Virus record (IMG/VR): IMGVR_UViG_3300025164_001013
Coordinates: 1-42,808 of that record
DNA from: a virus
DNA length: 42,808 bases
Reading direction: 5' to 3' (one strand)
The first letter of the stretch is position 1. Every line of letters starts with the position of its first letter. The notes below the pieces were generated by a model. It ran no database searches. It was not told the DNA's origin and worked only from the letters and a program-made list of their open reading frames with translations. Shown here in pieces: positions 3,460 through 42,808 of the stretch. Both the position numbers and the translations under genes were made by a program.

Positions 3460-4679
3460 GCCGGGCTCCCGTTCAGCGTGATTCGGAAGCGGTCGTCCTC
3501 TGCCTCGGTGCTCAGCCTCGCGTACTGCGTTGGTCCGATCGCGACCGACGCCACACCGGTCGAGCCAGCCGTGACCTCGGTCTCGCCAATCCCGACGACG
3601 GCATCGAGCACGCCCGGCACATTCAGCACCGCGCACAGCACGCGCGACCGGAACGCGTCGTCGCCGAGCCCCCAGTAGCCGTTGCGCTCGGGCGTGTGCA
3701 CGGCTGCTCGAACGGCGTCGCGGAGCACGAGCCCGCTCACGCCCGCTCCGACCTCGACCGTTGCCGCGATGCCGACCCAGATCTCAACCAAGCTCGAAGG
3801 CGTGTAGCGCACCGTCTGCTCGTCGCCCTGCGAGTCCTGCACCTCGATCTCTTCCTCGCCGTGCGAGTAGATGCCAGCCGGCTTGTTGCTCCAGATCGAG
3901 TGGCCGATCGTCGTCGCGAGCCCTTCGCCCTCGCCCTGCACGGTCGCTTCGAAGCTGTGAGGTGGTAGCCCGGTCTGGAAATCGAACATGTGCGAGGTGT
4001 TCTCTCTCACCACCGCGTCCTCGACGTCGTCGAGCGCAATCAGGTCGGCGCGGATGCCGTCGACGGTGCCGCCACCCGCTTGCGCGAGCTCGGCCTCGCG
4101 GCGCGCGCGGAACAGCACGTCGGACTCGGGCGTGCTGTCGCCGAGCTCGGCGTCGAGCACGTTCGTGGCCGCGTTCCAGCCGCCGACCGATGTCTCGATC
4201 ACCGTGAGGGTCTCGGCGTTAGCAACGATTGGGCCGGGCGACTCGGCTTCCGCCGCGACATCATAGTCGCCGGCGCCGATCGACGTCACGGACTCGAGCG
4301 TGATGAAGCGCGCGCCGGGGTTGCCGTCGACGCTCACCACACTGCCGGCCGGCACCGTCGTCGCCGCATCGAGAGCGAGCGTGAGTTCCACGGTGCTGCG
4401 CTCGGCGTCCTTGCGGATCGAGCCCGTCAGCGCCGCGATAGCGTCGAGCTGCGCTGCCTCGGCCTGGTCCGGATCGCCCGCGGCGTAGACCGATTCTGCG
4501 AGCTCCCACAGCTCAGAGAGCTTGCGGGCCATCACGCCGTTCATTTGGCCCAGCACCGAGTGCGCCGACACGTCGAGCGTCGGGTCTATCGTGGCCTTCT
4601 GGTCGGCCTCAATCTCCGCGAGGATCACGGCGAGCGGCTTGCGACTGAAGCCTGTGTCGGTGACGCCGTAAGTGGGCAC
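3456..4679 (-). CDS. Baseplate J-like wedge protein
   Basis: 407 aa. N-terminus MPTYGVTDTGFSRKPL..IL.EIE and overall pattern typical of the Baseplate_J family. Synteny spike-J-I-fibre. Confidence 0.8.
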   Translation of the reverse strand: MPTYGVTDTGFSRKPLAVILAEIEADQKATIDPTLDVSAHSVLGQMNGVMARKLSELWELAESVYAAGDPDQAEAAQLDAIAALTGSIRKDAERSTVELTLALDAATTVPAGSVVSVDGNPGARFITLESVTSIGAGDYDVAAEAESPGPIVANAETLTVIETSVGGWNAATNVLDAELGDSTPESDVLFRARREAELAQAGGGTVDGIRADLIALDDVEDAVVRENTSHMFDFQTGLPPHSFEATVQGEGEGLATTIGHSIWSNKPAGIYSHGEEEIEVQDSQGDEQTVRYTPSSLVEIWVGIAATVEVGAGVSGLVLRDAVRAAVHTPERNGYWGLGDDAFRSRVLCAVLNVPGVLDAVVGIGETEVTAGSTGVASVAIGPTQYARLSTEAEDDRFRITLNGSPA

Positions 4680-26656: not shown

Positions 26657-27432
26657 TCCGGGTTTGGCTCGCGGGCGAGCTGGTCCGCCACCTGCTCGCG
26701 CGTCGAGGGTGGCAGGATGCCGCTCGCGCGCTGCGGCTGTGGCTCCGGCGCGTCGTCGACCCACTGCTCGAGCTGGGCGAGCAGCACCGCGAGACCGAGG
26801 TGGCGCGCCCGGACCTGCGAGTCGCGCTTGAATCTCTGGCAGGCCGCACGGAAGAGCTCGAGCGCCGTGGTGCCGCGCTCGGCCGCGAGACGCTCGAGCA
26901 GCGGAACGACGGCTCCAATGCGAGTCCGCATGACCCCGCTCGTCGTCAGCCCGCCAGCGCCGTCCCATGCGTCGGCCAGCTCGCGCTGGGACTGGGACTG
27001 GGTGGGACTGCGTGGGACTGGGACGGGGTGGGACTGCGTGGGACTGGGACTGTGGGACTGGTGGCCCGCAGGCGCGCGCGCGTTCTCGCTCTCTTCTGGT
27101 AAGATTGCGTATTCATTTGAGATCTTAAAGTCTTGAGGAGAGGATTCAGAGATCGCGCGCGGAGCAGTCCCACCAGTCCCACCCGGTTTTGGTACCGATT
27201 TTGGGGTGGGACTGGGGTGGGATTCCGTCGTGGGACTGGGGTGGGACTGGGGTGGGATTCCGTCGTGGGACTGGTGGGACTGGGACTGCGTGGGACTGGT
27301 GGCCGCGAGCTGGCGGGTCACGGCGCCGAGTAGCTCCACCTCGGGACCGAAGCCGGGCTCGCGGCAGAGTCGTGCGCGTACGACCCCGAGCGCGGCGATC
27401 GCGGTCTCGAGCGATTCTTGCCGACGTGCCAT
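26641..27432 (-). CDS. Replication initiator candidate (lambda O-like organisation) containing the origin
   Basis: ATG at 27432 preceded by GGGGGA. 263 aa. The central low-complexity linker (SHPSPT/PTQSQS) is encoded by the iteron arrays. Directly upstream of the DnaC-like gene. Confidence 0.6.
   Translation of the reverse strand: MARRQESLETAIAALGVVRARLCREPGFGPEVELLGAVTRQLAATSPTQSQSHQSHDGIPPQSHPSPTTESHPSPTPKSVPKPGGTGGTAPRAISESSPQDFKISNEYAILPEESENARAPAGHQSHSPSPTQSHPVPVPRSPTQSQSQRELADAWDGAGGLTTSGVMRTRIGAVVPLLERLAAERGTTALELFRAACQRFKRDSQVRARHLGLAVLLAQLEQWVDDAPEPQPQRASGILPPSTREQVADQLAREPNPEWVDA
26987..27297. repeat. Origin of replication: two iteron arrays flanking an AT-rich segment
   Basis: Left array: TGGGACT x8 plus 1 variant (26987..27059). 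AT-rich stretch at about 27091..27150. Two inverted copies of AGTCCCA (27166..27172, 27175..27181). Right array: TGGGACT x7 plus 2 TGGGATT variants (27207..27297), including a perfect 35-bp tandem duplication (27203..27237 and 27238..27272). Confidence 0.75.
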
Positions 27433-27482
27433 CACCAGTCCCCCAGGCGGCGTTTGTTGGTGCGGACCAAGGGCGCCTCCGA

Positions 27483-27992
27483 TCAGGAAGGTTCGACCGT
27501 GGGGGGCTCGTCGGTGTCGAGGTCGTCGTCGCTCTCGTCGCGCTTCTCGGGCAGGCGTCGGCTCTTGGGTGTGCGTGGGCGCTGGAATTCGGGCTGCGAG
27601 AAGCCGGCCTGGCACTCCTCGGCCGTCATGGTGCGGGCTGCGACGGCCTCGCCGGTGTCGTCGCGGCGGAGGATCATCGACTTGCCGATCCAGTCCGCGT
27701 ACCAGGTGCAGGACACGATGCGGTCCTCGCTCTGTCGGCGCACGACACCGGCGAGCTCAACGCGCTCGACGGCGAGGCCGTCGATCTTCCCTTTGTAGTG
27801 ATCGCTCTGGCGCTTCTTCTCTGCCTCGAGCGCCGAGAGGTCGTCTTCGATCTTCGCCAAGCGCATCGCGCGCTCGTTGAACTCCGTTTGGGTGAGCCTG
27901 CACGCGAGTACGCGCGACTCGGTCTGGTTGGTCTGTTGGATGGGCTCTTCGCCCGGGCTGCTGGCTGCGTTCGACGGTGGCTTCTTGGGCAC
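27483..27992 (-). CDS. Coiled-coil hypothetical protein with acidic tail
   Basis: GTG at 27992 preceded by GGAGGAGG 7 nt upstream. 169 aa. High GC3. Confidence 0.5.
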   Translation of the reverse strand: MPKKPPSNAASSPGEEPIQQTNQTESRVLACRLTQTEFNERAMRLAKIEDDLSALEAEKKRQSDHYKGKIDGLAVERVELAGVVRRQSEDRIVSCTWYADWIGKSMILRRDDTGEAVAARTMTAEECQAGFSQPEFQRPRTPKSRRLPEKRDESDDDLDTDEPPTVEPS

Positions 27993-28054
27993 GGTGGGTC
28001 CTCCTCCGGAAGCGCGTGCGTACTGACTGCGCGGGGTGTTGAGATACGGGCGAG

Positions 28055-35435: not shown

Positions 35436-36105
35436 CCACCTTAAGCCGTGGTCGGAACTCAACATTGCTTGCATCGACTTCGAGACCACTGGACCAGACC
35501 CGAAGACCTGCGAGCCCGTCGAGCTCGCGGTCGTGCGCTTCGAGGGCGGCGAGGTCGTCTCCCGCTACTCGACGCTGATCGAGCCCGATGCTGCGATCCC
35601 GCCCGAGGCGACGGCCATCCACGGCATCACCGACGAGATGGTGCGCGAGAGAGGCACGGCGGCGAGCATGGCGTGGGCGGACGCGCAGCATCTACTGCGT
35701 GGCGCCATCCCGTGCGCCTACCACGCGCCGTTCGACCGCACGATTCTGCACCGCATAATGGTCGACGCGCTCGACGGCCAGGCCGTGGCGCGGTGGCTCG
35801 AGCTCGAAACCGCGTGGCCGTGGCTCGACCCGCTCGTATGGGTGCGGCAGCTCGATCGCTTCGTCGCCGGCAAGGGCCGGCACACGCTCAGCGCTGCGTG
35901 CGCGCGGCGCGGCATCGTGCTCGAGGGTGCCCACCGTGCCGCGGCCGATGCCGAGGCGGCGGGGCGCCTGCTCTTCCATCCGAGCCTTCGCGCGCTCGGC
36001 GGCAGCTCGACCATCAGCGAGGTGCTGCGCCGGCAGTCCGCGACGGCCGCCGACCAGCAAGCCGACTTCGAGCGGTGGCGTGCCAGCCAGCCGGTGCAGC
36101 CGTGA
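35419..36105 (+). CDS. DnaQ-like DEDDh 3'-5' exonuclease
   Basis: AAAGGGAGG Shine-Dalgarno sequence. ExoI ACIDFETTG, ExoII AYHAPFD, ExoIII HRAAADAEA. Confidence 0.8.
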   Translation: MLSLSDHLKPWSELNIACIDFETTGPDPKTCEPVELAVVRFEGGEVVSRYSTLIEPDAAIPPEATAIHGITDEMVRERGTAASMAWADAQHLLRGAIPCAYHAPFDRTILHRIMVDALDGQAVARWLELETAWPWLDPLVWVRQLDRFVAGKGRHTLSAACARRGIVLEGAHRAAADAEAAGRLLFHPSLRALGGSSTISEVLRRQSATAADQQADFERWRASQPVQP

Positions 36106-36323
36106 GCGCTCACCTCGAGGTGGTGCAGGACGCCACCATCGATGCGCCGGCCGTCAGCTACCCGGTGACCGGCGCCGACATCCGGGCACTGGCCACCCGC
36201 TACGCCGGCCTCTCGTGCGACACCCGCGTGGCGCTGAAGGCTTCCGCTCTCGACTACGGTCGCCGGGTGGACGGTGCGGCGCGCGAGCAGCGCGCCGAGC
36301 TGGTGCGGGCGGGTGCACGATGA
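36102..36323 (+). CDS. Hypothetical protein
   Basis: GTG in GTGA overlap. 73 aa. High GC3. Confidence 0.4.
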   Translation: MSAHLEVVQDATIDAPAVSYPVTGADIRALATRYAGLSCDTRVALKASALDYGRRVDGAAREQRAELVRAGAR

Positions 36324-36622
36324 CCGCACGAAGCTACCGGAGCAACGCCGCGGCTTGGGCACACGCATACTGCAACACTACCGAGCTACTGCTGAGCGGC
36401 AGAGCGTGCGCGGAAGCGCTGCGCCGGCCGCACTCCCTAGCAGCCTTCTGTCGCGCGCGCGCCGCTGGTGGTGATTTTCCACCGACCGCCTGGGCATGGC
36501 TGTGGTGGGCCGCTTGGGTGTGGTGCACCGAATTCGCGCGAATCGTCGCGTTGCGCGCACGCGGCAGCTCACGACCCGCCGCGTCCGAAGAAGCCGCGAA
36601 GAGCAAGAAGGCGAGGGCGTGA
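36320..36622 (+). CDS. Hypothetical Trp-rich protein
   Basis: ATG in ATGA overlap. 100 aa. Confidence 0.4.
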   Translation: MTARSYRSNAAAWAHAYCNTTELLLSGRACAEALRRPHSLAAFCRARAAGGDFPPTAWAWLWWAAWVWCTEFARIVALRARGSSRPAASEEAAKSKKARA

Positions 36623-36771
36623 CGCTCGGCAGACCTGGTACCAACGGCGCGCTGCCGCGCATCGCGTTCGCGAATCTGTGGGACTCGATTCACGGCAAGC
36701 GCCCCGGCTGCTCGTGGGACGCCAACCCGTGGGTGTGGGCGATCAGCTTTCAGAGGGTCGAGCAGCCGTGA
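36619..36771 (+). CDS. Hypothetical 50-aa protein
   Basis: GTG in GTGA overlap. Confidence 0.35.
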   Translation: MTLGRPGTNGALPRIAFANLWDSIHGKRPGCSWDANPWVWAISFQRVEQP

Positions 36772-36968
36772 CCCGCGACCTCGCCCGCATCGCCTCCGCG
36801 CTCGAGCGCATCGCGGCCGCGCTCGAGCTGGGCTCGCACGCGCGCAAGCGCTCGACGGGCAAGACCAAGCGCGCACGTCCGCAGTACCGGCCGCCGGCGC
36901 CGACCGTGCCGATCGACGACATCTCGAGAGAGCGCGCCAAGCAGGCGCTGCGGAGGGCGGGGTTGTGA
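36768..36968 (+). CDS. Hypothetical 66-aa protein
   Basis: GTG in GTGA overlap. Basic C-terminus. Confidence 0.4.
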   Translation: MTRDLARIASALERIAAALELGSHARKRSTGKTKRARPQYRPPAPTVPIDDISRERAKQALRRAGL

Positions 36969-37345
36969 TCGGTGACGGGCTGCACCGGGTGCACGCAGCG
37001 CCTGCCGCGGGCAAGGGCGGCAACAGCGTCGACATTGGCGCGGTGAGATGGCGCGGCGAGTCCAGCGCAGGCGCGCCAAAGCGCGAGATGGCGCATCGAA
37101 TCGCCACGTGCTGGAACGTGCTCGAGGGTTGGCCGACCGCCGCGCTCGAAGCGGGCTGTCTGCGCGAGGTGGACGATGCCGCGCTCGCGTTGTTGTCCGC
37201 GCTCGAGGGCGAGACCCTGACACAGGAGGGCAACCTTGCGCGCGAGCGTCTGCGCGCAGCATTCGCCGCGCGTGACCCTCAGCAGGACCTGTCTGGCGGC
37301 AGGCCGGCCGACTGCGACGACTGCTACCCGCCGAAAGATGCCTGA
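36965..37345 (+). CDS. Hypothetical protein upstream of int
   Basis: GTG in GTGA overlap. 126 aa. Confidence 0.4.
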   Translation: MIGDGLHRVHAAPAAGKGGNSVDIGAVRWRGESSAGAPKREMAHRIATCWNVLEGWPTAALEAGCLREVDDAALALLSALEGETLTQEGNLARERLRAAFAARDPQQDLSGGRPADCDDCYPPKDA

Positions 37346-39020
37346 CCGTCCGCCCAGCTTGCGGCCACCGGCCGGCCCGCGCGACAAGCGCCCGATGGGC
37401 AGCGGGTCGATCGAGGAGCGCGACGGCCGCCACCGCGTGCGGGTAAGGGTCGCGGGCCGCAAGCGCACGCTCGGCACCTACGCGACCCACGCCGAGGCGG
37501 CAGCGGTGCTCGAAGCGGCGCTAGAGCAGCTCTCGGCCGACCGCACCGCAAGCCCCGGCGCCACCACGCTGCGCGATTGGATCGCGCGCTGGCTCGAACA
37601 GCGCCACCTCTCGGGTGTCGTGCGCTCGGTCTACGACGACGAGTCACGCTTGCGCGCGCACGTGCTCTCTGAGCCGTGGGCCGACGACGCGCTCGACCAG
37701 ATCGACCGCCGCACCGTGCGGGCATGGGCGATCTCGATGCTGTCGCGCGAGGGCCGACGCCACGCCGGCGACGGCAAGCTGGTCAGCACCGGCCGGCGGC
37801 TCTCGCGCCACACCGTCAGCCACGTGCTCGCGACCCTGCGGGTGTGCCTGCGCGACGCCGTCGAACTCGGGCTGCTCGACGAGAACCCAGCCGCCGGCGT
37901 GCGGGTGCCGGCCGCGCAGTACACGCACGAGCCCTGGACGTACCTCACACAGGGCGAGATCGACGCGCTGCTGTCGTGCGAGCTCGTGCCCGCGCCGTAT
38001 CGGCTTCTCTACCGGGTCGCCATCTACACCGGCCTGCGCAAGGGCGAGCTCTGGGGCCTGCGCTGGGGCGACTGCTACCTCGACCACGCGACCCCGCACC
38101 TGATGGTGCGCCGCTCAAGGTCCGCAGCCCCGAAGAACGGCAAGATCCGAATGGTGCCGTTGCTCGGGCAGGCACGGGAGGCGCTCGAGCAGATGAACTC
38201 CATTTGTTCAGATTTGGCCCCTGATCGTTCAGCCGAAGGGGGTGATCGTTCAGCCGACCTCGTCTTCCCGGCACCCGACGGCTCGATGCGCGCGCGCTGG
38301 AACGACGCTCGGTGGAAGCAGCGCCGCAAGCCCTACACCACGGCCGACGGCGAGCGCCGCCACATCACCGAGCCCGGCTACCGCGAGCTCGCCGGCATCA
38401 AGCGCCACGTGCGCTTCCACGACCTGCGGCACACGTGCGCGAGCCATCTGCTGATGGGCACCTGGGGCCGAGCGTGGCGGCTCGAGGAGGTGCGGGATTT
38501 GCTCGGCCACAGCGACACCGCGGTCACGCAACGCTACGCCCACCTGGCGCCCGATCGCCTGCACGCCGCGGCCGCGGCGACGGTGCTCGAGCGGCCCCAG
38601 ACTGGCCCCACGGCACACGCTGCGAGCACCGCGGGCAGCGTGATCGGCGCCGACAACGCGCTGCAATCGCTGGACATTGCGCGGGGAGCCATCTCCGAGA
38701 TTCGAACTCGGGACCGACGGTTTACGAAACCGGTCGGGAGTGACGGACGTCATGGTGCTTTCGGCCCGTTGGGGCTGGCGTGGGGCCACGAAGCGCATGA
38801 GCTGGCGATCGACATTCTGCGGCGCGCCGCGCGCGGTGATGCCGTGCCTATCGAGGCAGCACACGGACTCGCTCAAGCCGTAGCCTCACACAAGGCGTTC
38901 AGGCTTGCCGCTGCCGTCCTGGCAGAGCTCGGCCAGCCCACGGCCCAGTCGCTGGCGGTCACACTCGCCGTGCTCGTTACGGAGGCGCTCGAGCGCACGC
39001 CGGAGGCCGGTCATGGCTGA
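37338..39020 (+). CDS. int: Tyrosine integrase with a long C-terminal extension that crosses the attP core
   Basis: Motifs GLRKGELWGLRWGD, HDLRHTCASHLL, LGHSDTAVTQRYAHL. No stop codon until 39020, about 150 codons after the catalytic Tyr. Alternative start at 37395. Confidence 0.85.
   Translation: MPDRPPSLRPPAGPRDKRPMGSGSIEERDGRHRVRVRVAGRKRTLGTYATHAEAAAVLEAALEQLSADRTASPGATTLRDWIARWLEQRHLSGVVRSVYDDESRLRAHVLSEPWADDALDQIDRRTVRAWAISMLSREGRRHAGDGKLVSTGRRLSRHTVSHVLATLRVCLRDAVELGLLDENPAAGVRVPAAQYTHEPWTYLTQGEIDALLSCELVPAPYRLLYRVAIYTGLRKGELWGLRWGDCYLDHATPHLMVRRSRSAAPKNGKIRMVPLLGQAREALEQMNSICSDLAPDRSAEGGDRSADLVFPAPDGSMRARWNDARWKQRRKPYTTADGERRHITEPGYRELAGIKRHVRFHDLRHTCASHLLMGTWGRAWRLEEVRDLLGHSDTAVTQRYAHLAPDRLHAAAAATVLERPQTGPTAHAASTAGSVIGADNALQSLDIARGAISEIRTRDRRFTKPVGSDGRHGAFGPLGLAWGHEAHELAIDILRRAARGDAVPIEAAHGLAQAVASHKAFRLAAAVLAELGQPTAQSLAVTLAVLVTEALERTPEAGHG
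38687..38733 (-). other. attP core: 3' 47 nt of a tRNA-Thr(CGU)-like gene (anticodon arm, variable loop, T arm, 3' acceptor strand)
   Basis: Minus strand reads CCGGT-TTCGTAA-ACCGT-CGGTC-CCGAG-TTCGAAT-CTCGG-AGATGGC-T. No D arm or complementary 5' acceptor strand lies upstream, so this is a fragment and not a gene. Confidence 0.6.
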
Positions 39021-39033
39021 CCCGGAGGGACAG

Positions 39034-39129
39034 CTAGCTCGGCGACGAGAGCACGTCGCCGTCCTCGCCCGCGATCTCTATCGCGAGGGGCGCATCGGTA
39101 TCGCCGTATGTGCTGGTGTAGCGAATCAT
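39034..39129 (-). pseudogene. Truncated copy of the 105-aa post-fibre ORF (31 codons)
   Basis: The first 27 codons are identical at nucleotide level to 41863..41943. The sequence then switches to 8 bp matching fibre Y (40138..40145) and stops. Confidence 0.45.
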
Positions 39130-39130
39130 G
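39049..39130. repeat. 82-bp perfect direct repeat (partner 41863..41944)
   Basis: Identical strings GAGCACGTCGCCGTCCTCGCCCGCGATCTCTATCGCGAGGGGCGCATCGGTATCGCCGTATGTGCTGGTGTAGCGAATCATG at both positions. Confidence 0.9.
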
Positions 39131-40505
39131 CCGCGAGCCCCGTGGTAGCGGTGATGTAGGCGCGAATGAAAGCATCCAACTCCGAGGACGCATCCTCGAC
39201 CATGATCAGTAGATAGAATTTGCCACCCGACACACTCGGGTGCCCGACGTTGATCGCATCTACACTGTCGCATCCCGATGTGCCGGTGAACGCCGGCGAT
39301 ATCGCTGCGCCGTCGAGCTTGCCCACAAGCCCACTCGCCAAAAACTCAATGCTGGCGGTATGCCAGGCTGTGTCCGCAGCCGGGCTCGACAGTGTTATTT
39401 GTTGCAGCCCTCCGGGCTCGGGCTCGGCCTCCATAACAAAACTGCCACCACTGCGGTACAGCGCTGCATCGCCCGGACCACACAGCACGGCGCATGGTGC
39501 CATGACGCCCGACGCGTGTTGCGTCACAACGAAATACATTCGAATGCGGCGACCGCTCGACAACGATATTGCTGTGTTGGTCAGGATGTCGTCAGCGTCG
39601 TTTGGTACCGTGTACGGGAGGTTGTTTGGCCCTCCACTCGCCACATATAGAGGCTGCAAGCTCGCTGTTGCCTGCGTGCAGTGATAGGTGCCCCATCGAT
39701 CGTTGAGCTGCGAGACGTTCGCACCGTTTAGCGTGACGTTCGCCGCGGACACCTCGAGCCAGACGTGCCGCGTGAAGCCAGTGCCATTGGTGACGACGGC
39801 ATCCCATGTCGCTGCGACGACGATCTCGTCATACGCGGTGGACGCGCCGTCGTGTACGGTGAGCCGCAGCACAATCGCTGCGGATGGAGCGCTGGGCGTA
39901 AATGTGCTGATAAGCGACGTGTCATCGCCGAATACGCCCGCTCCACCACTCTGCACGGTCCACTCGTACGTATAGCTCCCGGTTCCACCAGACGCTCCCA
40001 CTCCGGCGAGGACAGCAACCCCGTTGGCCCAAGACGTAGGAGCTAAGCCTGCGTCTACCGTCAGACTCACCCCGAGCGTCGCCGCGCCCTCCGAGCGCGT
40101 CGAGCATGCGCCGGCCAGCAGCCTCACGACCGCATTCGGCGACGAGAGCACGTCGCCGAATGCGATCGGCACCTCGCCGGCCGTCGTGATCGCGACGACT
40201 TCCACCGCGCACCGCCGGCGATCGTCCAGCGACACGCTAAACGCGCGCACAGCCACCACCCCTGGCGTAGCAAGCGCCACCTGTCTGAGCACGGCGCGCG
40301 CCAACCGCAGATTCGGGTGCTTGACGAAGACCAGCTGGAACCACGGCACCCCTACCCGTGAGTCCAAAAACCATTCGCCGAGAAACGTGCGGAATCGGAT
40401 TCGCAGGCTCTGCACCACAGCATCGGCGCCGACCGCTAGGCTGAGCCGTCCCTGCGTGATCGTCAGGTCCCCGGTCGCCAGATCGAGCCTAATATCACTA
40501 CTCAT
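39126..40505 (-). CDS. Tail fibre Y: baseplate-wedge-like N-domain, conserved junction, PKD/Ig-like domain, LamG/ConA-like lectin domain
   Basis: 459 aa. N-terminus has DAVVQSLRIRFRTFLGEWFLD..VGVP (gp25/W/XkdS-type pattern). Junction VVRLLAGACSTRSEGAATL. YTYEWTVQSGG Ig-like repeat. Beta-rich C-terminus of about 230 aa. Confidence 0.7.
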   Translation of the reverse strand: MSSDIRLDLATGDLTITQGRLSLAVGADAVVQSLRIRFRTFLGEWFLDSRVGVPWFQLVFVKHPNLRLARAVLRQVALATPGVVAVRAFSVSLDDRRRCAVEVVAITTAGEVPIAFGDVLSSPNAVVRLLAGACSTRSEGAATLGVSLTVDAGLAPTSWANGVAVLAGVGASGGTGSYTYEWTVQSGGAGVFGDDTSLISTFTPSAPSAAIVLRLTVHDGASTAYDEIVVAATWDAVVTNGTGFTRHVWLEVSAANVTLNGANVSQLNDRWGTYHCTQATASLQPLYVASGGPNNLPYTVPNDADDILTNTAISLSSGRRIRMYFVVTQHASGVMAPCAVLCGPGDAALYRSGGSFVMEAEPEPGGLQQITLSSPAADTAWHTASIEFLASGLVGKLDGAAISPAFTGTSGCDSVDAINVGHPSVSGGKFYLLIMVEDASSELDAFIRAYITATTGLAA

Positions 40506-40508
40506 CGC

Positions 40509-40934
40509 TCACCTCTGCCGCACAGGCGGCTGCGCGTCCTGCAGGGCCCGCGCAGCCGCGGCCTGCGGGTCGAGGCCTTCCCGGCGGGCCTCGTCGTAGG
40601 CCATGCGCGCACGCTGGGCGGCCTCCGCTCGACGCCGCGGCTCGGCAGCGTCGGCGGCCGTGAGTGAGACGTACCGGCGCCAGAGATCGATCTCTCGCGT
40701 GCGTACCTCACGCTCTCGCTGCTCTGCAGCGAAGCTGCGCTCTTCAAGCACCCGCAGCCCGCGCCCAAGAGCCTCCGCGGACGCGCGAATGGGGGTGAGG
40801 TCGTCATCTCGCGCGAATCCATCCAGGTACACCCAGGCACCGCCCGCGAGCGACGTGAGCACGCCGACCGCAGACCAGAAGGTGCCGGAGCTGAGCACTT
40901 GCCGCGCTGAGCTCCAGGTGTCTCGTGGCGCCAC
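40509..40934 (-). CDS. N-terminally anchored coiled-coil membrane protein
   Basis: 141 aa. TM helix FWSAVGVLTSLAGGAWVYL followed by an Arg/Glu-rich helix. Tightly packed between neighbours. Confidence 0.5.
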   Translation of the reverse strand: MAPRDTWSSARQVLSSGTFWSAVGVLTSLAGGAWVYLDGFARDDDLTPIRASAEALGRGLRVLEERSFAAEQREREVRTREIDLWRRYVSLTAADAAEPRRRAEAAQRARMAYDEARREGLDPQAAAARALQDAQPPVRQR

Positions 40935-40936
40935 AC

Positions 40937-41626
40937 CTAGGTCACTCCTATCGAGATGGTGGCAGGGCTCGGGCCGAGCAGCTCACGGTGCACTTCGTGC
41001 AGCTCGAGTAGCGGGAACCGCAGGCGGAGATCGGTGCTGGCCAGCGCTGCGCGCCACTGCTGCCACAGCGGCGAGCGCGGCGCCACGATCCACTGACCGC
41101 CCATGCCGCCGACCGGCGAGCCGCGCCCCTCGAAGCGACGAACGTAGGGGTTGCGGGTGGTGTGACCGACGGTCGCATGTGCATCGACCACGCAGTCCAC
41201 GCAGCCGGCGGTGCAGAGCGCATCGCGCAGCCGATCGGCGAGGCCCCCGTCGCCCGCCTCACCACGTGACCCGCCGCTGCTGCACGCATAGAGCGCTACT
41301 CGCAGCCGCGGCGAGCAGCCGTGGTGGACGAGCGCGCGCGCGAGGTCACGCACAGAGGAGTTGTCGAAGCCGACCTGCAGGCCGGTCTGGTAGCCGTGGC
41401 AGAAGCAGGCCAGCAGATCGATCGGGCCCGCGGCTCCGAGCCGCGACAGGGACTCCAGGACGTGCTTACGCCGCTCTGGCGCAGTCCGGGTGCAGTCGAT
41501 GCTCTGCACGGATGTGCTCGGCAGATGATGGAGCTGCGCGAACGCTCGAGCCTCGGGCGCGAACGCTCCTGAGTAGTCACGGCGGCCGCGCGAATCGCGG
41601 TCGGGCGTGAGGATGAGGGCGCGCAT
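40937..41626 (-). CDS. Putative clan-CD (caspase-like) cysteine peptidase
   Basis: ATG at 41626 overlaps the upstream stop (TGATG). 229 aa. Hydrophobic strand then His-Gly (LLACFCHGY), followed by a hydrophobic strand then Ala-Cys (RVALYACSSGG), as in caspase-fold enzymes. Assignment by motif only. Confidence 0.35.
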   Translation of the reverse strand: MRALILTPDRDSRGRRDYSGAFAPEARAFAQLHHLPSTSVQSIDCTRTAPERRKHVLESLSRLGAAGPIDLLACFCHGYQTGLQVGFDNSSVRDLARALVHHGCSPRLRVALYACSSGGSRGEAGDGGLADRLRDALCTAGCVDCVVDAHATVGHTTRNPYVRRFEGRGSPVGGMGGQWIVAPRSPLWQQWRAALASTDLRLRFPLLELHEVHRELLGPSPATISIGVT

Positions 41627-41943
41627 CAGCAGCACCTCGGCGTAACGATCCACTCCACCGCGACCTCGCGAGTGCCACCCGCGGTCGTGATGCGCCAGGC
41701 GACGCAGAAGAGCGCGGGCACGCTCGGTTCTAGGATCATCCCCCAATCGATCACCCACATGAGTCCGGCCCCGCCATTGATCACGATGGCCGAAAACCCG
41801 TCATTGCCACCAAGACACGCGCCCGTTGGTGTGCGCACCTTCAGCGCGCCGCTGGTGACCTCGAGCACGTCGCCGTCCTCGCCCGCGATCTCTATCGCGA
41901 GGGGCGCATCGGTATCGCCGTATGTGCTGGTGTAGCGAATCAT
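41626..41943 (-). CDS. Post-fibre small beta-rich protein (candidate tail-fibre chaperone)
   Basis: ATG at 41943 in ATGA overlap with the fibre X stop. 105 aa. Its 5' 82 bp are duplicated after fibre Y. Confidence 0.5.
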   Translation of the reverse strand: MIRYTSTYGDTDAPLAIEIAGEDGDVLEVTSGALKVRTPTGACLGGNDGFSAIVINGGAGLMWVIDWGMILEPSVPALFCVAWRITTAGGTREVAVEWIVTPRCC

Positions 41944-42808
41944 GGCGTCCAGTCCTCTCCGTAGTAGCTTTCAAGTAGAGCTACCACCGCATCGCGTCGC
42001 GCCGCTGTGCCGCCCTTGCACACGACGATCGCCATCATGCGCCCGCCAAACGCATTGCCCGACGGCAGTCCCATCCTGTGTCCGAGGTTCACCTGCGTGC
42101 ACTCGTATTCGGTGCGCACCATGCCGCTGGCATCCGGGACGTCATAGGTGCCGCCTCCGGCCGAGTCTAGGGCCACGTGAAGCAGCCCGTCGGCGTCATC
42201 CATCCACCCCGAATACAGGTACGGATTGCTGATGTCGTTGTCTACTGTCGCAGTGCTGCTGCATTCGCGCACCGTGCTATCACCGTCCACGTAAGCCTGG
42301 CAGCGCACGATATTCGACGTCATCACCCGCGCTCTGATCACCTTGCCGGTATCGCCGGAAGAATCCGAGTAGTCTACTATGGTGCGCGTGGTTGATGCGT
42401 CGCTTATGGAAAACACCACGAAGCACGCTAAGGCGTCACTCGATGCAGCGAGCCCAGCGAAACCCGACGCCAATCGATAATGTTCAGATTCGGCGCGAGT
42501 AAAACCTACGTACGCTCGGTTGTTGACGCACATGCCGTCGGGACTCGGCGTGGGCTGATAGCTCCCCGTCTCTTGCGTCACGTGGTTTGCGTACGAGCTC
42601 GAGTCCGACCACTGCGACGCTGTGGCGTTCTCGGCGATCAACAGGTGCACGCAATCTGTCCCGAGCAGTGTCAGGAGGTCTGACACAAGCGTCTCCCACG
42701 CAGGGACATCGACCGTGAGCGTCGCCGCGCCCTCCGAGCGCGTCGAGCATGCGCCGGCCAGCAGCCTCACGACCGTGAGCGTCGCCGCGCCCTCCGAGCG
42801 CGTCGAGC
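41940..42808 (-). CDS. Tail fibre X, 3' part (frame open to the window end)
   Basis: No in-frame stop between 42770 and 42808. Encodes ...STRSEGAATLTVVRLLAGACSTRSEGAATLTVDVPAWE... followed by a 276-aa C-terminal domain. Less GC-rich than the core genome. Confidence 0.6.
   Translation of the reverse strand, partial: STRSEGAATLTVVRLLAGACSTRSEGAATLTVDVPAWETLVSDLLTLLGTDCVHLLIAENATASQWSDSSSYANHVTQETGSYQPTPSPDGMCVNNRAYVGFTRAESEHYRLASGFAGLAASSDALACFVVFSISDASTTRTIVDYSDSSGDTGKVIRARVMTSNIVRCQAYVDGDSTVRECSSTATVDNDISNPYLYSGWMDDADGLLHVALDSAGGGTYDVPDASGMVRTEYECTQVNLGHRMGLPSGNAFGGRMMAIVVCKGGTAARRDAVVALLESYYGEDWTP
42710..42808. repeat. 60-bp junction unit, 1.65 copies at the window end (further copies at 1..82 and 40074..40132)
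   Basis: 42749..42808 is identical to 1..60. 42710..42748 equals unit positions 22-60. 61..82 is a variant of positions 1-22. 40074..40132 equals unit positions 29-60 plus 1-27. Confidence 0.9.

Follow-up and report, generated by a model that had tools for sequence, protein, structure and literature searches.

What becomes of an integrase gene when the attachment site of the phage lies within its own reading frame? The question is raised by IMG/VR record IMGVR_UViG_3300025164_001013, a 42.8-kb virus genome. All of its 42,808 nucleotides (nt) were analysed and are called the window here; the DNA around the integrase gene, int, is about 70% G+C. The 3' half of a tRNA-Thr gene lies antisense within the 3' part of int, and a first-pass annotation had taken it for the core of the phage attachment site (attP). 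The favored reading, with a probability of roughly 0.85, is that the tyrosine integrase gene of the phage contains the whole of attP in its 3' part and that integration rewrites the C-terminus of the integrase (Int).

An integrase frame open across a tRNA-Thr fragment

The int frame was correctly described at first as staying open past the catalytic RYAHL motif to position 39020. There is no in-frame stop before 39018, and the Pfam Phage_integrase domain (E = 1.8e-21) ends near nt 38552 with about 155 codons still to come. Public gene calls begin int at the downstream ATG of the two listed in Table 1, giving the 541-amino acid (aa) protein P0001, whose numbering is used here for the catalytic, linker and helix residues of Int. 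The upstream ATG is the likely start, as it overlaps the stop codon of the upstream open reading frame (ORF) and opens an N-terminus (RPPSLR..KRPMG) common to P0002 and P0005, which are among the nearest homologues. A sequencing error hiding an int stop codon was ruled out, since the ENA, Logan and JGI assemblies, three that are independent of one another, all encode the same 541-aa protein.

Residues R215, K247, H342, R345, H372 and Y381, the R-K-H-R-H/W-Y set, are invariant across 49 homologues. An AlphaFold2 model of Int built with 49 homologues reached a mean predicted local distance difference test (pLDDT) score of 83. Foldseek returned full-length lambda Int (1z1b_A), including the arm-binding domain, as the best PDB match of the model (E = 1e-10, 404 aligned columns). 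Residues 4-51 of the model form a three-stranded sheet and a helix. Modeling thus supports a lambda-type tyrosine integrase with arm-binding N-terminal, core-binding and catalytic domains, followed by a disordered linker of about 65 residues and a four-helix C-terminal domain of about 75 residues.

DNA this rich in G+C often has long spurious ORFs, and the window contains many overlapping ORFs of more than 150 aa. The extension might then be a chance open frame in 70% G+C DNA, with Int ending near the catalytic domain and attP lying downstream of int as usual. G+C at codon positions 1, 2 and 3 was 0.83, 0.54 and 0.73 in the tail versus 0.68, 0.52 and 0.87 in the catalytic part, so that the tail is the less typical of the two and its third-position value falls below its first. 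This measure was ambiguous on the coding status of the tail, and a comparison of profile scores with shuffled sequences was used instead. For the profile, the 100 C-terminal residues of each of 46 further long-form homologues were used, leaving out the window's own sequence. The window tail scored 45.0 bits against it, the best of 2000 composition-preserving shuffles scored 10.8 bits, and the other five reading frames of the tail DNA gave 2 bits or less.

The predicted structure agrees with this result. Helices were placed at residues 465-480, 486-496, 502-510 and 515-533 with pLDDT values of 79-97, and the tail modelled alone adopted the same fold (mean pLDDT 85.5). A profile search of 1.84 billion representative proteins found the tail domain in 729 of them. 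The tail matched no Pfam family and no PDB fold (best E = 2.6). On the profile score, the AlphaFold fold and the 729 proteins, the C-terminal extension can be taken as settled to be a genuine translated part of Int. With the frame uninterrupted and the same in three assemblies, a chance frame is essentially refuted and has become very improbable.

The fragment within the extension comprises the anticodon stem and loop, the variable loop CGGTC, the T arm CCGAG-TTCGAAT-CTCGG, the 3' acceptor strand AGATGGC, the discriminator T and then CC. It has neither a D arm nor a 5' acceptor strand, as had been noticed from the start, and ARAGORN found no complete tRNA anywhere in the window, in line with what had been expected of such a scan. 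A 31-nt block covering the T arm, acceptor and TCC is identical in the fragment and in bona fide tRNA-Thr genes. Compared with complete tRNA-Thr(CGU) genes, 42-45 of 49 positions agree, including genes from GC-rich Polyangiales, Sandaracinaceae and Myxococcales metagenome-assembled genomes (MAGs). Among the differences from these Myxococcota genes are positions 27 and 44, a single base of the T loop, and the T-stem pair 52/62, where the change is compensatory (A-T for G-C). Judged on these matches, the fragment is clearly tRNA-derived. Searched against Rfam, the half-molecule gave no tRNA match, only a weak one to the tRNA-like mascRNA (E = 0.48). Folded by itself, it did no better than shuffled sequences (z = -0.59), an outcome to be expected when half of the tRNA is missing.

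A host tRNA-Thr(CGU) gene sharing the 3' 45-50 nt had been predicted. This held for two sister phages. One is L019, a 60.5-kb phage contig binned with a Polyangiales MAG, whose Int (P0005) is 64% identical to that of the window; the other is the sister phage L064 (Int P0007). Their fragments are identical to tRNA-Thr(CGU) over 46 nt in L019 and 47 nt in L064, the complete genes coming from L063, a MAG of an uncultured delta proteobacterium, and L050, a Polyangiales MAG. For the window itself, the agreement of 42-45 positions out of 49 given above was the best obtained. A 27-nt core pattern had no match in the IMG/VR collection that was scanned, which also did not hold the window's own contig. 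A 28-nt pattern found only AT-rich, non-host tRNA-Thr genes in JGI metagenomes. In the pairing of the L064 attP with the L063 tRNA-Thr gene (150-226), exact identity extends 3 nt past the CC end (..GGCTCCCAT). The 8-kb L063 locus has no detectable int, and the identity beyond CC may be chance or the trace of a past integration.

The match to the tRNA starts at position 28 for the window, at 30 for L019 and at 32 for L021, which places the crossover at or 3' of the anticodon loop. A crossover within the anticodon loop is suggested by analogy with the anticodon-centred class of tRNA attachment sites (PMC4383910).

Two copies of a paired CCCCA motif flank the core. The motif has four matches in the window, as against 0.02 expected by chance, and the two remaining copies lie inside an unrelated GGGACTG repeat array. 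The attP DNA was aligned across five phage loci with a common acceptor strand, AGATGGCTCC (the window, L019, L021, L064 and L065). Three conserved blocks, namely the core, the left motif and the inverted right motif, stood out amid divergent sequence. In the window and in L019, L021 and L064, the right motif sits at +85/+96 relative to the end of the core. The left paired motif is present in L019, L021 and L064, 10 nt nearer the core than in the window. In L065 there is a single CCCCA left of the core, and the right motif is shifted by a 9-nt insertion. The left and right 16-mers of L019 are exact inverted copies of one another. We infer that the two motifs are candidate arm-type sites for the lambda-like N-terminal domain of Int.

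The core is read in codon phase 0 in the window and in phase 1 in the four relatives, and indels on both sides of attP restore the common frame. As a result the core peptide is ..AISEIRTRDRRFTKPV.. in the window and ..SHLRDLNPRPTVYE.. in the relatives. Because the shared sites are read in different frames, they are conserved as DNA and not as peptide. In the Int model, pLDDT falls below 50 at residues 398-401 and 403-461, and this low-confidence segment coincides with the position of the tRNA core. The comparison supports a linker that would tolerate any sequence, with selection acting on the DNA rather than the peptide.

These features bear on whether the fragment is an inactive relic or a recombination scar, in a phage that integrates elsewhere or not at all. 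Such an origin would accommodate the 4-7 mismatches among 49 positions to the nearest tRNA-Thr(CGU) genes, and the fact that neither an exact host tRNA nor an integrated copy was found. However, the T stem is perfectly paired and differs from those of relatives by compensatory pairs only (CCGAG/CTCGG in the window, TCGGG/CCCGA in L019 and ACGGG/CCCGT in L021). The acceptor strand and the anticodon arm are common to the fragments of these three phages, and the acceptor strand and both paired motifs keep conserved offsets despite the change of frame. Moreover, the catalytic residues of Int are intact and the sister phages match host tRNAs exactly over 46-47 nt. A relic is considered improbable on this evidence, and an active attP remains the favored reading.

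The site was identified from the beginning as attP rather than attL or attR, and its surroundings bear this out. Only phage genes, structural and early ones, lie around int, with a gene resembling a helix-turn-helix (HTH) repressor and early genes upstream. An independent ENA contig, L015 (42,949 nt), runs across the end of the window into its start. The genome is therefore circular or circularly permuted, without host DNA.

Table 1. Position and basis of the features in and around int (window coordinates)
Feature	Position	Strand	Basis or detail
int ORF	37236..39020	+	uninterrupted frame, 594 codons
int gene, lambda-type tyrosine integrase	37338..39020	+	560 aa from ATG 37338; 541 aa from ATG 37395
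Catalytic domain ending in the RYAHL tyrosine motif	37944..38552	+	Pfam PF00589, residues 237-439 of the 594-codon ORF
Predicted disordered Int linker, residues ~398-464; DNA of the attP region	38586..38786	+	AlphaFold pLDDT
Candidate P-arm site CCCCAGACTGGCCCCA (CCCCA-N6-CCCCA)	38595..38610	+	motif search, alignment of relatives
attP core, 3' half of tRNA-Thr(CGU), tRNA positions 28-75	38685..38732	-	direct sequence reading, 48 nt
Anticodon loop TTCGTAA (positions 32-38), putative strand-exchange (overlap) region	38722..38728	-	anticodon CGT at 38724-38726
Candidate P'-arm site CCCCACGCCAGCCCCA, inverted relative to the P-arm site	38770..38785	-	motif search, alignment of relatives
C-terminal four-helix domain, predicted to be lost on integration	38787..39017	+	tail profile, AlphaFold

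Free and integrated forms of the integrase

In the proposed mechanism, Int would recombine attP, in the region of its anticodon loop, with the tRNA-Thr(CGU) gene of the host, and the host tRNA would be rebuilt using the 3' half supplied by the phage. The int gene would then run on into the 5' half of the tRNA, read antisense, and stop after 5-7 new codons. The P' motif and the coding sequence of the last 96 residues, including the four-helix domain, would move to the far end of the prophage. To predict the prophage product, the 5' halves of tRNA-Thr(CGU) genes, 11 in all and from Myxococcota, were each joined to the window int within the anticodon loop. The phage-host hybrid junction is predicted to continue into the tRNA-Thr(CGU) 5' half as ...TTTACGAAACCGTTGCTCTACC..., giving a prophage Int of 450-452 aa in which 5-7 new residues replace the last 96. 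Its sequence would end in ...RFTKPLLY[H/R/L/P] or ...PLLYQLS, followed directly by the stop codon. The predicted loss falls within the 95-110 codons that had been estimated. By analogy with the IntP and IntX forms of phage Mx8, truncation may change the activity of the prophage Int, probably lowering it, and the complete gene would be regained on excision.

Both forms of the gene were observed among relatives. The tail domain is present in 55 of the best 120 Int homologues. In most of the 55, the stretch that joins the catalytic domain to the tail includes a peptide recognisable as tRNA antisense, and the tRNAs of origin are many and diverse (for example GIEPATFSLGS, ESNLRPSASE and GTRTPDPRLRRP). 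About two dozen of the 120 are short forms ending just past such a peptide, and some homologues have no extension at all. Long-form int genes were found in a phage context without a complete tRNA in L019, L021 and Mx8 itself. In L022, L023, L024 and L050, a short-form int ends inside a complete tRNA gene lying antisense to it, and host genes follow. The tRNA is tRNA-Gly(CCC) for P0030 in L022 and L023, and tRNA-Thr(CGU) for P0098 in L024. At the tRNA-Thr(CGU) gene of the Polyangiales MAG L050, int reads ...SHLRDLNPRPTVYETVALPLS and stops at a TAA from tRNA positions 7-9, and a host threonine-aldolase-like gene follows the int/tRNA junction. The altered C-terminus foreseen in the first-pass annotation is thus present in these four relatives, and for the window phage it is a prediction.

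The tail domain also occurs apart from int. Among the top 150 of the 729 tail-domain representatives, most are proteins of 64-135 aa. Thirty tail-domain sequences were read, and many of them consist of a tRNA-antisense peptide and then the tail. Two tail-only cases examined in context had no int upstream. At the tail-only locus L071, the tRNA fragment keeps its CCA, there is no complete tRNA, and host-like genes lie on one side. These findings fit, without being conclusive, the idea that tail-only proteins are orphaned Int C-termini at the far ends of prophages.

The truncation may be real and yet have no regulatory meaning, the location of attP within int reflecting genome compaction and the tail being dispensable or acting independently. 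Neither a fold nor a function could be assigned to the tail, and homologues without any extension exist, as this explanation would allow. On the other hand, the tail is kept in hundreds of divergent integrases aimed at many tRNAs, which argues for a function tied to the unintegrated form, and the prophage form of Mx8 is reported to have altered recombination properties (PMC6070905). A truncation devoid of regulatory meaning is therefore rated unlikely, although it retains some weight.

Several points weigh against the favored reading of an attP in int whose use rewrites the protein. No integrated copy, attL or attR of this phage was found, and the evidence for integration comes from relatives with Int 43-64% identical. 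A 41-nt core pattern had no exact match in 185,579 species genomes, the best GC-rich matches agreeing at 42-44 of 49 positions. The effect of losing the tail is drawn wholly from Mx8, whose tail has no detectable homology to that of the window Int. The tail is also less typical in its codon-position G+C than the catalytic part. The tail-only proteins may in part be fragments or stand-alone genes, DNA having been seen for one example.

The IMG/VR relatives L068-L070 included no integrated close relative. One of them, L069 (IMGVR_UViG_3300033067_002443), is a distant relative with a 397-aa Int that is 39% identical and has no tail. Its int is closely followed, at 4170-4240, by a fragment resembling tRNA-Thr (antisense peptide WSHFRDLNSRPTVYE), which lies on the strand opposite to that in the window's arrangement. 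L069 represents a different int/attP arrangement within the same broad family.

The phage genome

PHROGs matches in the window include portal, head protease, major head protein, neck, tail sheath, tape measure and baseplate wedge. They bear out the initial description of a myovirus-type genome, and with L015 they support a temperate, myovirus-type phage with a circular or circularly permuted genome of 42.8 kb. The host is probably a myxobacterium. A megablast search with positions 36000-42808 found no match among deposited phages.

Dense GGGACTG / GTGGGACTG repeats occupy positions 26985-27300 on either side of an AT-rich stretch of about 100 nt (27085-27160), with inverted copies (CAGTCCCAC) at 27166-27184. 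The interval 27001-28000 contains the strongest anomaly in GC and AT skew in the window. The layout of the repeats resembles iterons around a replication origin, or an operator array.

Positions 1-60 and 42749-42808 are identical. L015 carries both copies in tandem, and the 60-nt (20-aa, ..STRSEGAATLTVVRLLAGAC..) duplication is real and not an assembly overlap. It lies inside a 361-aa tail-fibre-like gene that spans the window junction. Further direct repeats were found among the tail-fibre genes: 85 nt at 39049-39133 and 41863-41947 (99% identical), 23 nt at 39039-39061 and 40136-40158, and 64 nt at 40069-40132 and 42712-42775. A 31-aa ORF on the minus strand (39034-39129), 14 nt from the int stop codon, is a hybrid of the first 27 residues of a 105-aa ORF (41626-41943, minus strand) and the sequence SSPS, as found in a 459-aa ORF (GDVLSSP). 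It looks like a remnant of recombination at a shared 13-nt 'GDVL' junction.

The 459-aa protein (39126-40505, minus strand) begins with a gp25-like baseplate wedge or sheath-initiator domain (residues 1-114; PHROG 120, Pfam Sheath_initiator). The repeated linker is the point of fusion between this N-terminal domain and the C-terminal remainder, some 330 aa that matched no family. The shared RLLAGACSTRSEGAATL linker suggests module exchange between two fibre-like proteins. The gene is unusually placed, at the very end of the tail module and adjoining attP.

Comparison with known systems

The closest parallel is phage Mx8. Magrini et al. in 1999 reportedly found that 112 residues of Mx8 IntP are replaced by 13, that the product IntX is less active, and that attP function needs flanking sequences within int. 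For Mx9, attP is likewise said to lie within int (Julien, 2003). In Mx8, attP is located within int, and the gene that results from integration is a recombinant whose 3' end is new and whose product differs in its properties as an integrase; integration of Mx9 follows a similar principle (PMC6070905). By its title, as cited in PMC11610982, the work of Tojo & Komano (2003) concerns an Mx8 C-terminal segment that is not needed for excision. The Islander approach allows for integrases that extend across attP, such as those of Mx8 and SSV (PMC4383910).

The window phage and Mx8 share an Int of about 530-560 aa, with attP and its flanks inside the 3' part of int past the catalytic domain. In both, the core is an antisense tRNA 3' sequence, and the Mx8 Int peptide STGLEPV stems from T-arm-like sequence. 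On integration Mx8 trades about 100 C-terminal residues of Int for a short end (PMC6070905), which is predicted for the window phage too, and its host, like the probable host of the window phage, belongs to the Myxococcota. In contrast, the window Int aligns with that of Mx8 over residues 32-218 alone (33% identity, E = 4e-15, BLASTP; catalytic domain and tail unaligned). The profile of the window-family tail did not match the Mx8 tail significantly in hmmsearch or hhalign. The target in Mx8 is the tRNA-Asp gene trnD, whereas the core read directly from the window is tRNA-Thr(CGU), a difference of tRNA that had been pointed out beforehand. The window phage is moreover of myovirus type with a sheath, unlike Mx8. 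An orthologous relationship to Mx8 IntP was ruled out, the similarity being N-terminal only and the tails unrelated. The likeness to Mx8 that was originally drawn therefore stands for the principle of the arrangement and not for the protein, which is analogous rather than orthologous, with similarity confined to the N-terminal 198 aa.

Mx9 Int is also long (548 aa) and runs well past the catalytic tyrosine. It has no significant BLASTP similarity to the window Int (best E = 0.23), and its tail is a Pfam HTH_17 domain, whereas the window tail is predicted to be four-helix, matches neither Pfam nor PDB and has no similarity to the Mx9 tail. Orthology with Mx9 Int was ruled out on that E value and the absence of HTH_17 from the window tail. 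In Mx9 Int itself (L067, 607-2250), the excisionase-type helix-turn-helix HTH_17 occupies residues 489-537, preceded by the peptide ARALPTEL, which resembles a tRNA D arm. What is detached from Mx9 Int may therefore be a DNA-binding module resembling Xis.

Integration of the SSV type splits int into two separated parts and does not merely trim a C-terminal accessory domain. SSV1-type fuselloviruses of archaea resemble the window phage in having an attP within the integrase gene that is altered on integration into a tRNA gene (PMC4383910, PMC8371274). They differ in their archaeal hosts and in belonging to another integrase lineage. Ordinary tRNA-targeting integrases of the lambda/P4 type are heterobivalent with an arm-binding N-terminal domain, as predicted for the window Int from its best PDB match, lambda Int. 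In the ordinary anticodon-centred class, too, attP contains the 3' half of the tRNA, starting in the anticodon loop, so that the tRNA is regenerated (PMC4383910). In these ordinary systems, by contrast, attP lies outside the int coding sequence, and Int is unchanged by integration.

On sequence comparison, the window Int represents a third integrase lineage with the attP-in-int architecture, with another accessory C-terminal domain, tRNA target and virion type. A wider proposal is put forward tentatively, at a little less than even odds. It holds that an undescribed large lineage of Myxococcota phage and island integrases exists apart from Mx8 and Mx9 Int, with a complete attP (two inverted 16-bp arm-type sites and a tRNA 3' half) in a frame-indifferent disordered linker. 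The detachable four-helix domain would act as a switch of directionality or activity, and tail-only ORFs would be the prophage-end halves. If this is true, tail-only ORFs of 64-135 aa would be a sequence marker for integrated versus free forms, and the presence or absence of the tail would separate free phage from prophage forms in metagenomes. Int/attP pairs with predictable tRNA targets are candidate integration tools for poorly tractable myxobacteria of the Polyangiales type. The locus also appears to be a natural example of attP DNA sites that overlap a coding linker, with selection on the DNA. The mechanism itself is already known from Mx8. The modest new points are the frame-independent conservation of a complete attP in a disordered linker and the size of the family. 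The self-rewriting integrase would thus not be confined to one or two Myxococcus phages, as it recurs in a separate large lineage.

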